Source: Kiritimatiellales bacterium (GTDB lineage Bacteria; Patescibacteriota; Gracilibacteria; Peribacterales; Peribacteraceae). Taken from it: 59,759 bases of DNA. How positions within the stretch are numbered: position 1 is the stretch's first letter; the number at the start of each line of letters is the position of its first letter. Where the stretch lies: the NCBI GenBank assembly GCA_021734665.1, contig JAIPIN010000001.1, positions 1 through 59,759 of the forward strand. Reading direction: 5' to 3'. A program made the position numbers and the translations under genes. Below the pieces are notes generated by a model. It did no database searches. It saw only the letters and a program-made list of their open reading frames with translations, and was not told where the DNA came from. This document shows, one piece after another, positions 1,441 through 23,576 of the stretch.

Positions 1441-1531
1441 ATTGAGAATTCAGAATGCAGAATTAAGAATTACGGTACGCTATTTATAGTACATGGCTAA
1501 TTCTACATTTTTAATTCTAAATTCTAAATTC
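1441..1531. repeat. heptad-periodic imperfect inverted repeat H1 filling the divergent GT2/tsaB intergenic region
   Basis: Left arm gagaattcagaatgcagaattaagaatta (1444-1472, GAATNNA units) vs right arm taattctacatttttaattctaaattctaaattc (1498-1531); 22/29 positions complementary in manual alignment; 25-nt loop. Confidence 0.75.
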
Positions 1532-1536
1532 TTTAA

Positions 1537-2145
1537 ATGCATTGCCTATTTATAGATATAGCTAGTCACGATGGATTTATTGCTCTTCTTAGCGAAGAAG
1601 GAGTAGTTGGATCTATAGAAATTAATACTCGTATCAGGGATCATGAGCTTATTCCACTTGTGGAGGACATGATTAATAAGGCTGGTTGGAATTATAAAGA
1701 TTTGACTAATATTGCATGTGTAATCGGGCCTGGTGGATTTACAAGCTTGCGAGTTGCGGTTTCATTTGCCAATACTTTGATGGATCAGTTGGGTATTGAT
1801 GGGGCAGGAGTGCATTTATCAGATTTGTATTTAGAAAGGTCGAAAGGTCAGAAGGTCGAAAGGTCAGATGTCGTCTGGCTACACGCCACAAAGAGAGATT
1901 CAATATTTGTAAAAGGAAGCGAATGGACAGAGCCAACAATGGTTAAATTGGAAGATTTCAAAGAAAAAGTGCCTCAAGGATCTAAATGGATGGGGGAGCT
2001 TTTGGATGAACAAATCGAATATTTATCTTCAAAGGATCTGATTAAAGCAGAGCTTAAATCCATTGAAGAAGTGCTTCCTGAGCTGATTCTTAAGCAGAAA
2101 TTCGAATCTAAACCACTTGAGCCTTGGTATGGAAGGAATGGATAG
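1537..2145 (+). CDS. tsaB: tRNA threonylcarbamoyladenosine (t6A) biosynthesis protein TsaB (YeaZ family)
   Basis: 202 aa; N-terminal LFIDIAS...IALL and GPGGFTSLRVAVSFANTL (GPGSFTGLR-type motif of TsaB), C-terminal P-x-Y-G-R ending. Confidence 0.75.
   Translation: MHCLFIDIASHDGFIALLSEEGVVGSIEINTRIRDHELIPLVEDMINKAGWNYKDLTNIACVIGPGGFTSLRVAVSFANTLMDQLGIDGAGVHLSDLYLERSKGQKVERSDVVWLHATKRDSIFVKGSEWTEPTMVKLEDFKEKVPQGSKWMGELLDEQIEYLSSKDLIKAELKSIEEVLPELILKQKFESKPLEPWYGRNG
1836..1867. repeat. perfect 16-nt x2 tandem duplication (aaggtcgaaaggtcag) inside tsaB
   Basis: 1836-1851 and 1852-1867 are identical; each unit is itself made of aaggtcg/aaaggtcag sub-units; encodes low-complexity ERSKGQKVERSD. Confidence 0.9.
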
Positions 2146-2188
2146 ATTTCTAAAATCTTAATCACTTCTCTGCTATCATTTATCAGAA

Positions 2189-21669: not shown

Positions 21670-23183
21670 CTACCGGGCACCAAGTACGCAAACGCACTTA
21701 GAGATGCTCTCCCGGGCAATCAAATAACATGTTGATCTATGAGCACGATCAGCGCATGTCTTCAGAGATAATTCCCTGGTAAGGAAGTGTTCCATCCGCA
21801 GGTTCTCCTACGGATACCTTGTTACGACTTAGTCCCAATCAGCAGTTTCACCGTGGTACCGCCTCCGAAGAGTAACGGTCCTTCGGGCGCCCCTGCCTTT
21901 CATGACTTGACGGGCGGTGAGTACAAGACCCAGGAACATATTCAACGTGACGTAGCTGATTCACGTTTACTAGCGATTCCAACTTCATGAAGTCGAGTTG
22001 CAGACTTCAATCCGAACTGAGACCGGCTTTTTGGGATTCGCTCCCCCTCGCGGGTTCGCTGCCCTCTGTACCGGCCATTGTAGCACGGGTGTTGCCCCAG
22101 GTATAAGGGACACGCAGATCTGACGTCATCCTCACCTTCCTCCGCCTTGGAGGCGGCAGTCTCCTATGAAAAAACAACATAGGATGAGGGTTGCGCTCGT
22201 TTGCTGACTTAACAGTACACCTCAAGGCACGAGCTGACGACGACCGTGCACCACCTGTCACCGAGTTCCTTGCGGCACTCCTCCCTTTCGGGTGGATTCT
22301 CGGGATGTCAAACCTGGGTGAGGTTCTCCGCTTATTATCGAATTAAACCCCATGCTCCACCGCTTGTGTGGGTCCCCGTCTATTCCTTTGAGTTTTAGCC
22401 TTGCGGCCGTACTTCCCAGGCGGTGTGCTTACCGCGTTAGCTAAGGCACGGAAATCAATTGATAATTCCCACACCGAGCACACATCGTTTAGGGCGTGGA
22501 CTACCGGGGTATCTAATCCCGTTCGCTCCCCACGCTTTCGTCCCTGAGCGTCAGTACATTCCCAGCATCTTGCCTTCGCTTTTGGCGTTCTACTATGGAT
22601 CAACGGATATTACCCCTACACATAGCATTCCAGATGCCTCTGAATGACTCAATCTCTGCAGTTTCCGGCACGTACACGGAGTTGAGCTTCGTGCTTTTAC
22701 GCCAGACACACAGAGTCGCCTACGGACGCTTTACGCCCAGTAATTCCGAGTAACGCTTGCACCTTCCGTCTTACCGCGGCTGCTGGCACGGAATTAGCCG
22801 GTGCTTTCTCCTGAGGTACCGTCAAAAATTTCGTCCCTCAGAACAGAAGTTTACGCCCCAAGGGGTGTCATCCTTCACGCGGTGTCGCTCCGTCAGGCTT
22901 TCGCCCATTGCGGAATATTCCTCACTGCTGCCTCCCGTAGGAGTATGGGCCGTGTCTCAGTCCCATTCTGGCTGGTCGTCCTCTCAGACCAGCTACCCGT
23001 CATAGTCTTGGTAGGCTATTACCCCACCAACAAACTGATAGGCCGCAGGCCCCTCCCGAACCGATAAATCTTTCCTCTTGCGAGGGCATCCGGTATTAGC
23101 CCATCTTTCGATGGGTTATCCCTGAGTTCGGGGTAGGTTCCAACGTGTTACTCAGCCGTTCGCCACTCGCGTCTCACTCTTGG

Positions 23184-23340
23184 TTCTAGTGTAGTTAGTG
23201 CTGTAATTCTAGTTCATGGGGGCGAGTGAATGAAAAATGAATAATGAATAATGAAAAATTATCATTACTTTCCATTTTTCATTTTTAATTATTCATTCGC
23301 GCCCTGCGAACGAGAAAGACAGTCTAATACTGCGTAAAAA
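23184..23340 (-). other. ~157-nt insertion/expansion segment in 16S helix 6 (V1)
   Basis: Closed by a 16-bp stem (23168-23183 cgcgtctcactcttgg vs 23341-23356 ccaacagtgagacgcg, 1 mismatch) between the conserved CATGCAAGTCG and GGCGAACGG..GAGTAA blocks; about 190 nt where E. coli has about 40. Confidence 0.7.
23222..23302. repeat. heptad-periodic imperfect inverted repeat H5 inside the 16S insertion
   Basis: gcgagtgaatgaaaaatgaataatgaataatgaaaaat vs ttccatttttcatttttaattattcattcgcgc (AATGAAW units); pairing register ambiguous. Confidence 0.7.
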
Positions 23341-23505
23341 CCAACAGTGAGACGCGCGTGCGACTTGCATGTGTTAGGCGCACCGCTAGCGTTCACTCTG
23401 AGCCAGGATCAAACTCTTTAAAAAGAGTTGACCTAACTTAAGTAAAAGTTAGTTCAGTCCTTTTTTACTAAAAAGAACAAAAAAAAAGAAATCGAGGTTC
23501 AATGA

Positions 23506-23576
23506 GTATTTCGTATATTGTATTTCGTATTTCGTATGAAAATCATACGAGATACTAGATACGTGATACTAAATAC
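23506..23576. repeat. heptad-periodic imperfect inverted repeat H6 in the 16S leader
   Basis: gtatttcgtatattgtatttcgtatttcgtatga (TATTTCG units) vs tcatacgagatactagatacgtgatactaaatac; 27/34 complementary by manual alignment, 3-nt loop. Confidence 0.75.

Follow-up and report, generated by a model that had tools for sequence, protein, structure and literature searches.

A stretch of 59,759 nt (the window: contig JAIPIN010000001.1 of assembly GCA_021734665.1, deposited as Kiritimatiellales bacterium, positions 1 to 59,759) carries a series of hairpins in its intergenic DNA and around its 16S rRNA gene, with arms built mostly from tandem 7-nt units. The question is what these elements are and how they came to be there. 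A first-pass annotation made from the letters alone listed six of them and could place them in no known class. The feature is real, non-random and lineage-wide. The most probable reading, to which we give a probability of roughly 0.6, is that these are dispersed hairpin repeats of ~60–110 nt, with arms of 7-nt (occasionally 8-nt) tandem units and fast turnover, which would arise by slippage combined with inverted duplication or copying and would be carried as selfish or neutral sequences in permissive DNA. Each genome holds a few sequence families, and these families turn over quickly between lineages.

The window derives from a small-genome, groundwater-type bacterium of the Candidate Phyla Radiation (CPR), class Peribacteria (Peregrinibacteria). 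In genome and metagenome scans, the best identities of its SecA (2189–4906) were 73–79%, to proteins of Candidatus Peribacter or Peribacteria contigs from metagenome-assembled genomes (MAGs) and to related metagenome contigs. These were the closest relatives that the scans gave for comparing presence/absence and unit number, and an exact-protein look-up for near relatives returned only the same sequence. Pfam identities near the first six loci comprise GT2, tsaB, secA, holB, ferredoxin, a sufC-like ATPase, macB-like permeases and sufB/D. The sample of relatives consists of 160 SecA-centred loci, ~45 of them from Peribacteria. The near-identical pairs L006/L084 and L013/L094 were excluded as duplicates (L013, the one of these with tabulated arrays, had none), and gene calls in the related loci are crude, based on open reading frames (ORFs), which affects the context densities given below. 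The elements of the window, as delimited by Tandem Repeats Finder (TRF), an inverted-repeat scan and covariance-model searches, are the following:

1440–1532, no strand: H1, heptad hairpin of putative family A; TRF arrays (GAATTNA)x4.6 at 1440–1471 and (AATTCTA)x4.9 at 1499–1532; inverted repeat of 26 nt at 85%; occupies the entire 102-nt divergent spacer between a GT2 gene (586–1434, minus) and tsaB (1537–2145, plus).
1834–1868, plus strand: in-gene 8/16-nt tandem repeat, GAAAGGTC x4, in the hypervariable loop of TsaB (TRF period 16, 100% matches).
4903–5003, no strand: H2, period-8/16 hairpin of putative family B with a GAATATTGG core; inverted repeat of 29 nt at 90%; TRF period 16 at 4966–5002 with 100% matches; runs from the secA stop codon to the last base before the holB ATG (5004).
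7938–8021, no strand: H3, putative family A with mismatched arms; TRF 5.3-copy left array at 7938–7974 resembling the left arm of H1, loop and right arm (7973–8014) resembling H5; occupies the 95-nt divergent spacer between a ferredoxin gene and an ABC ATPase gene.
12700–12761, no strand: H4, heptad hairpin with a minimal loop; TRF (CCAAGKT)x4.4 at 12700–12730 and (TTGGCAC)x4.3 at 12732–12761; lies between two tandem macB-like permease genes, the downstream one starting at 12692 on the minus strand.
21780–23424, minus strand: 16S rRNA gene, host of H5 (Rfam SSU_rRNA_bacteria, 1462 bits, full-length match).
23178–23345, minus strand: insertion of 168 nt at the tip of helix 6 (V1) of the 16S rRNA (cmscan alignment, 168 nt against a 3-nt loop in the bacterial model).
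23222–23302, minus strand: H5, heptad hairpin of putative family A (AATGAAW / TTTTCAT); TRF 23229–23259 and 23269–23297; inverted repeat of 24 nt at 92%.
23501–23581, minus strand: H6, heptad hairpin with a GTATNNN core; TRF 23506–23537 and 23545–23576; inverted repeat of 39 nt at 77%.
30899–31009, no strand: H7, period-8 hairpin of putative family B (arms 30899–30933 and 30983–31009) in a divergent spacer of the glycan island; inverted repeat of 27 nt at 78%.
59556–59583, plus strand: single heptad array, CAAATAA x4.1 (TRF), directly 3´ of the stop codon of gene 57842–59551.

No inverted partner was seen for the array at 59556–59583. The heptad units of the window include GAATTNA, AATGAAW, GTATTTC and CCAAGKT, with at least five different units overall. 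Four of the six loci described earlier as heptad-armed inverted repeats (H1, H4, H5 and H6) are indeed paired period-7 arrays, and TRF also finds the left array of H3. The description does not fit H2, which has a period of 8/16, or the second arm of H3, which pairs poorly. Of the 13–16-nt duplications annotated as related features, those at 4966–4997 and 7940–7967 turned out to be 16- and 14-nt double units of the same arrays, and the one at 1836–1867 is the separate 8/16-nt repeat in tsaB.

Assembly error was considered as a source of these structures and rejected. Window positions 495–8148 are matched exactly by a Logan contig from SRR12088349, so that H1–H3 are reproduced by a second assembler, and in-frame copies of the same kind of repeat occur in several independent MAGs.

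The period of 7 nt is specific. A strict array detector (at least four copies, at least 85% matches and no shorter period explaining the array) returned four arrays in the window, all with period 7 although periods from 4 to 12 were scanned, and 20 dinucleotide shuffles gave none. In the Peribacteria loci, the same detector found 41 arrays of period 7 and at most seven of any other period. With TRF at a threshold of at least 3.5 copies, which was also used for all density counts, the window contains 10 period-7 arrays. Moreover, the autocorrelation proposed in the first-pass annotation bears the periodicity out: bulk intergenic DNA peaks at lags 7, 14 and 21, while coding DNA displays the codon period only.

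The arms pair at least as well as had been estimated by eye. The inverted-repeat scan gave arms of 24–39 nt with 77–92% complementarity, equal to or above the earlier figure of about three-quarters. RNA folding yielded z-scores of -4.6/-5.5 for H1, -6.7 for H2, -4.5 on both strands for H4, -6.3 for H5 and -4.0 (RNA sense)/-6.4 for H6, and none of 200 shuffles of these five hairpins was equally stable. Stable folding does not extend to H3 (z -2.1/-1.4), because its two arms come from different sub-variants. A mirror-copy test showed that most arms pair nearly equally well in registers offset by 7 nt, as expected for slippage-prone arrays, and palindromic copying of unit variants is proven by this test in a few arms only (L008 and L083). 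Furthermore, neighbouring arrays of the Peribacteria loci, separated by no more than 80 nt, are inverted in all 16 cases, with 0 direct pairs.

Sequence relationships link most of the window hairpins. H1 and H3 match over 43 nt at 86% (1435–1477 and 7936–7978), H3 and H5 over 42 nt at 79% (7973–8014 and 23256–23297), and the left arm of H2 matches H7 over 32 nt at 78% (4909–4940 and 30904–30935). The best two-copy dispersed direct repeats of the whole window are precisely these hairpins. The left arms of H1 and H3 are identical at 29 of 32 positions and the right-arm cores of H3 and H5 at 24 of 26, with a shuffle expectation of 0 for both; GAATATTGG is found on both arms of H2 and H7, at five sites against 0.97 expected. 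These alignments point to a family A made up of H1, H3 and H5, with heptads of the form nAATnnn and H3 as the link, and to a family B made up of H2 and H7 with the GAATATTGG core.

Five of the seven hairpins thus fall into two families, and H4 and H6 are singletons within the 60 kb. The earlier view that the loci share architecture without sequence, apart from H1/H3, survives for these two singletons and fails for H3/H5 and H2/H7. Copy number refers to the 60 kb of the window, where each family has two or three diverged copies, and this is the figure available for the multi-copy definition of repetitive extragenic palindromic (REP) sequences and REPINs. H7 also overturns the statement that the glycan island contains no such element. 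This island holds only ~1.0 kb of intergenic DNA, compared with 2.2 kb in the first 24 kb, and with so little spacer DNA its low hairpin count is uninformative.

One member of family A resides in the ribosome. Folding of the 168-nt insertion in helix 6 gives a single uninterrupted hairpin of ~95 bp (-84.3 kcal/mol, z -10.8), in which H5 makes up the distal 80 nt, a hairpin nested within a hairpin. Since H5 is homologous to the intergenic H3, the tip of this 16S expansion belongs to a family of intergenic repeats. As in rRNA intervening sequences (IVSs), an extra hairpin replaces the loop of a variable helix. It has been shown that the helix-6 tip of E. coli 16S rRNA, which corresponds to eukaryotic es1, tolerates insertions experimentally (PMC2441807). 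Among CPR 16S genes, 42% contain insertions of 100 nt or more (PMC9297842), and the 16S of Ca. Peribacter riflensis has no insertion (PMC4736985). None of the fetched related loci contained a 16S gene with which V1 could be compared.

H6 is part of the transcribed 16S leader and stands between the leader–trailer processing stem and the mature 5´ end. A perfect 15-bp leader–trailer complement pairs 23586–23600 (GCAGAGUAGAGAAGU) with 21655–21669 and is probably the pre-16S processing stem. H6 is located inside it and would thus belong to RNA that is removed during maturation. It is also downstream of a promoter-like TTGACC-16-TAGAAT at 23764–23737, ~310 nt upstream of the mature 16S 5´ end. The 16S gene is solitary, with 23S, 5S and tRNA genes all absent from the 59.8-kb window and with a sufD-like gene and a glycosyltransferase gene as neighbours.

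The same architecture is found across the relatives with other heptads, in agreement with the suggestion of a genome-wide repeat-generating process. TRF period-7 arrays occur at 16.7 per 100 kb in the window, 14.1 in Peribacteria, 10.8 in other CPR loci and 2.5 in non-CPR loci, and 7 is the commonest period in every one of these groups. A universal heptad was looked for and rejected, as the 131 Peribacteria arrays distribute over 92 heptad classes. These arrays form 31 inverted pairs, so that close to half of them are paired. Two distant arrays share a heptad class in 10 of 140 pairs within a locus and in 17 of 3413 pairs between loci, a difference of ~14-fold. In L017, two paralogous hairpins with the heptad GTGGTTA are separated by 1.2 kb, and three further hairpins have an AAT core. 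Two of these three have 30 identical nt in common, a non-periodic loop among them; this is duplication rather than convergence. Together with the two families of the window, the L017 paralogues contradict the earlier conclusion that the hairpins are not a MITE- or REP-like family (MITE, miniature inverted-repeat transposable element).

The comparison of orthologous intergenic regions, which had been suggested as a check, shows that hairpin presence varies at both junctions studied. The secA–holB spacer measures 16–50 nt in lineages without a hairpin and ~95–130 nt in lineages with one, and the sequences are unrelated. The window has period-8 units at this junction, and L007, L022, L083, L008 and L082 have GTGGAWA/TATCCTC, GTAGTAW or GTGGAAA heptads or a non-heptad hairpin. 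Similarly, ~12 of 27 relatives have unrelated hairpins in the divergent spacer upstream of tsaB, and in the remainder this spacer is short. The hairpins therefore add to spacers that are minimal without them, and they are dispensable.

Comparable repeats have entered protein-coding genes. The hypervariable loop of SecA near residue 645 carries heptad inverted repeats, as in-frame hydrophilic inserts, in L008 (11932–12010), L010 (11925–11997), L025 (11932–11993) and L086 (5005–5067). The arms in L008 mirror each other perfectly (24/24), unit variants included, and the L008 heptad GAGACTN recurs in an intergenic hairpin 5.5 kb away (17401–17480). Searches with tblastn revealed that the TsaB loop holding the 8/16-nt repeat of the window is an indel hotspot, with periodic inserts in relatives such as L090 and L010. 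The in-frame inserts of SecA and TsaB are 60–80 nt long and differ in sequence between lineages. The TsaB-loop repeat of the window is a product of the same repeat process at a permissive coding site.

The arrays are predominantly intergenic. In 44 Peribacteria loci, with crude ORF calls, their density is 0.70/kb in divergent, 0.69/kb in tandem and 0.41/kb in convergent spacers, approximately 10 times that in ORFs (0.06/kb). In the window, hairpins take up essentially the whole of 6 of the 17 spacers that are 60 nt or longer, and this amounts to 16% of all intergenic bases. Intrinsic terminators were tried as an explanation and rejected: the hairpins lack T-runs, none was called by a terminator scan, and divergent spacers are as array-rich as tandem ones. 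The statement that the hairpins cannot all be terminators is thereby upheld.

The hairpins stand very close to genes. Shine–Dalgarno motifs are nearly absent from the gene starts of the window, and the 3´ end of the 16S rRNA (near 21780–21800) reads ...GGAACACUUCCUUACC, with CUUCC in place of the CCUCC anti-Shine–Dalgarno core. TAnnnT hexamers, which resemble a -10 box, concentrate 6–13 nt upstream of start codons, and 23 of 52 genes have one ending 5–12 nt before the start. The clustering of these boxes suggests that most mRNAs are leaderless. Hairpin arms end 0–8 nt from start codons, and two of them supply a -10-like box at 6–7 nt, TAAATT before tsaB and TATTAT before holB. According to the comparison with relatives, the true starts lie just outside the hairpins, at ATG 5004 for holB and at ATG 12692 (minus) for the second macB-like permease. 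Mechanical ORF calls run both genes into the hairpin arms (4956–5003 and 12693–12722), so these repeats can mislead start-codon prediction.

On the reading proposed at the outset, short arrays would arise and change length by replication slippage, at the period of 7 that is favoured in bacteria generally. They would become and remain palindromic through inverted duplication or intrastrand template switching, and whole hairpins may occasionally be copied to new sites. They would persist where extra DNA is tolerated, that is, in spacers of any orientation, in the discarded 16S leader, at the helix-6 tip and in variable surface loops of proteins, where three units of 7 nt (21 nt) would preserve the frame. 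Selfish or neutral hairpins of this kind may have created most of the longer spacers of these streamlined genomes, and local effects on transcription, RNA processing or promoters would be secondary.

Several points weigh against this proposal. We infer slippage and mobility, and the closest relatives are only ~76% identical in SecA. The material compared yielded neither a high-identity pair of empty and filled sites, nor a target-site duplication, nor any candidate for a mobilising enzyme. The hairpins abut start codons and fill whole divergent spacers in which promoters must lie, and some may have been co-opted for function, as promoter or as spacer DNA. Moreover, very similar AAT-core heptad hairpins recur in distant CPR genomes, which could reflect constraint rather than neutrality, or a genuinely mobile element. 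Finally, the gene calls in the related loci are ORF-based and crude.

The alternative that survives best, although unlikely, is that the hairpins are functional structural signals, in which the sequence is free to drift provided that the periodic hairpin persists. As RNA, they could serve as insulators or non-canonical terminators, as sites for RNase III-type processing or, next to start codons, as elements of translational control. As DNA, they could form cruciforms or arrays of binding sites with 7-bp spacing for a nucleoid or regulatory protein. Their high stability relative to shuffles is consistent with this, as is their position within 0–8 nt of start codons in a genome without Shine–Dalgarno sites, which resembles the TAACTGA repeats of Beggiatoaceae (PMC4679880). 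However, the contexts are incompatible with one RNA-level role: if mRNAs are leaderless, the hairpins of divergent spacers would not be transcribed as hairpins, while H2, H4, H5 and H6 are, and heptad arrays also occur inside coding loops and rRNA. The junctions upstream of tsaB and downstream of secA bear unrelated hairpins in many lineages, which speaks for a signal, but many other lineages are hairpin-free there and have short spacers only. The occupancy of orthologous spacers (~44%) is near the general share of filled long spacers (6/17), and positional conservation is thus not needed to account for it. In favour of a signal, the AAT/ATT trinucleotides at 7-nt spacing are invariant in six elements from two genomes, and the AAT-core pattern appears in several CPR genomes and never in shuffles, against which stand the 92 heptad classes among 131 arrays. 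On the main reading, the hairpins would not constitute one dedicated regulatory signal, given their equal density in divergent and tandem spacers, their lack of T-runs and this diversity of classes.

A broader reading of the AAT-core elements, speculative and about as improbable as the functional one, is that CPR bacteria harbour a distinct self-propagating class of heptad hairpins. The pattern (AATN4)3AAT...(ATTN4)3ATT was counted three times in the window, six times in the Peribacteria loci and five times elsewhere, including contigs of Patescibacteria/Moranbacteria (L029 and L047), and not once in block-shuffled data. Heptad hairpins of the form (AATN4)n...(ATTN4)n might then typify such a class in Peribacteria, Moranbacteria and other Patescibacteria, one that would spread between sites without a cis-encoded enzyme, lodge preferentially at hairpin tips and gene boundaries, and be a main source of new intergenic DNA, 16S expansion hairpins and disordered protein loops.

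It is less probable still, and in our judgement doubtful, that these are strict non-autonomous mobile elements of MITE or REPIN type, moved by a trans-acting enzyme such as a Y1/RAYT-type or other hairpin-recognising transposase, with the periodicity as a secondary property. Such an enzyme would explain why paralogues at unlinked sites share non-periodic sequence, why heptads are shared ~14-fold more often within than between genomes, and why hairpins are nested in the 16S rRNA and present in its helix tip and in coding loops, which is reminiscent of Rickettsia palindromic elements (PMC10969869). On the other hand, no transposase-like gene is present among the ORFs of the 60-kb window scanned with Pfam, and inspection disclosed neither terminal inverted repeats distinct from the arms nor target-site duplications. 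The copies are few and diverged (78–86%), many hairpins are singletons in the available sequence, and dozens of unrelated heptads with the same architecture fit local generation better than a single transposition system.

The last alternative, by which the symmetry of divergent spacers would come from back-to-back promoters and the remainder from low-complexity AT-rich DNA or assembly artefacts, is very improbable and largely refuted by the shuffle controls and the non-promoter contexts: sigma-70-like hexamer pairs can be read within the H1 and H3 arms and the TAAATT and TATTAT boxes lie before tsaB and holB, but promoter-like matches number 28 against 51 in shuffles, a -10-like box at the distance expected of leaderless mRNAs is present in some arms only, promoters are not characterised by heptad periodicity, shuffles contain no such arrays, and tandem junctions, rRNA and coding loops have hairpins as well.

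The placement in no known class can be revised, since both the heptamer excess of bacteria and convergent inverted pairs of heptamer arrays have been published. Heptameric tandem repeats are over-represented in bacteria, and it has been hypothesized that the slippage period reflects the segment of DNA held by the polymerase, i.e., the polymerase footprint (PMC4692102). Heptameric long simple sequence repeats (LSSRs) are attributed to Mrazek et al. 2007 as cited in PMC4692102, and heptamers are also known as cyanobacterial short tandemly repeated repetitive (STRR) sequences. The closest described arrangement is that of the Xanthomonas GGGAATC repeats: 70–75 times per genome, two inverted arrays converge at close range and can form stem-loops (Rehm et al. 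2015, PMC4692102).

The elements described here share with bacterial heptamer repeats the tandem 7-nt units with a conserved core and one to three variable positions, typically ~4 units per array, the period-7 excess, the mostly intergenic location and the extensive variation in length and sequence between related genomes. Like the Xanthomonas pairs, they have opposite-strand arrays close together that are capable of forming stem-loops. Unlike the Xanthomonas and Nostoc repeats (GGGAATC, GGGGAYT), they are AT-rich and lack the G-rich GGGANTN unit of the G-quadruplex type. One or a few genome-specific heptamers dominate in the described cases (STRR1–3, GGGAATC, TAACTGA). No single heptad is apparent here: at least five occur in the 60 kb of the window and 92 classes among the 131 Peribacteria arrays, with heptad classes shared ~14-fold more often within loci than between them. 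Furthermore, the host is a small CPR genome rather than a large one, the arrays fill spacers next to gene starts rather than near 3´ ends, and copies are present inside 16S rRNA and protein loops. Some Peribacteria do have G-rich arrays resembling the G-quadruplex-type heptamers of Xanthomonas and Nostoc: telomere-like (GGGTTAG)n and (GGGTTCG)n follow secA in L003, L005, L014, L019 and L150, and another array lies at 7704–7734 of L031.

The TAACTGA repeats of marine Beggiatoaceae, Cyanobacteria and Bacteroidetes (MacGregor 2015, PMC4679880) are also similar, as they consist of two to six heptamers just upstream of start codons without a canonical ribosome-binding site, and in Beggiatoaceae they have been proposed to bind a post-transcriptional regulator (PMC4679880). 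However, they use one fixed heptamer, in 169 direct sets against one indirect, while the heptads studied here are variable and nearly half of the arrays are inverted. REPINs, REPs and MITEs (PMC3116915; PMC10969869) are likewise short intergenic repeats (~100 nt) that form hairpins, are non-coding and lie dispersed over a genome in several diverged copies. The present elements differ from them in having no GTAG/CGTC-tagged palindrome, no RAYT (REP-associated tyrosine transposase) or other transposase seen in the window, internally periodic arms and only two or three copies per family. Inspection, in place of a formal scan, revealed no flanking direct repeats of the MITE kind at H1, H2, H3, H7 or the L017 copies, where the similarity stops at the arm ends.

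Rickettsia palindromic elements (PMC10969869) are comparable as palindromic repeats of a reduced genome that are inserted in frame in unrelated housekeeping genes and also in non-coding DNA. They are families of ~100–150 bp with a conserved peptide, in contrast with the 60–80-nt, heptad-periodic and lineage-variable inserts found here in hypervariable loops only. The rRNA IVSs and expansion segments and the CPR 16S insertions (PMC9297842; PMC2441807; PMC4990558) resemble the helix-6 insertion in that a variable helix is extended at its tip by a long additional hairpin. Most CPR 16S insertions are described as intron-like and often long, unlike this plain 168-nt hairpin, the tip of which is a copy of an intergenic family of the same genome.

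Bacterial heptamer repeats in inverted pairs and dispersed hairpins similar to REPINs, MITEs or Rickettsia palindromic elements were therefore known already. In the literature searched, heptamer or tandem repeats were not reported for CPR bacteria, and the Peribacteria genome paper does not mention them. The novelty resides in the many heptads per genome, the high density in a streamlined CPR genome and the colonisation of 16S helix 6 and of protein loops. CPR genomes are regarded as highly streamlined, yet about one sixth of the intergenic DNA of the window consists of hairpins. If this is general, the heptamer excess of bacteria, the frequent 16S insertions of the CPR and indel-rich protein loops could share one mutational or selfish process. 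In practice, such hairpins break assemblies and primers, distort 16S V1 analyses and misplace called start codons, as for holB and the second macB-like gene.

The window contains some further repeats and hairpins. A canonical G+C-rich terminator hairpin with a T-run is found at ~9697–9720, after gene 8878–9672, and is followed at 9750–9773 by a perfect 24-nt palindrome, AGAAGTATGTGC|GCACATACTTCT, which is not heptad-periodic. The 228-nt gap between the ORFs 10303–10785 and 11014–11325 contains a 15-nt tandem repeat, TCTTCTTCAGTAGCT x3.4, at 10937–10993, possibly part of a minus-strand ORF with acidic repeats that was not called. Finally, a 13-nt direct duplication, AAGTGCAACACCC x1.9, lies at 59627–59661, and its left flank, TTCCATTCCGAAG, recurs at 10448 (10448–10476).

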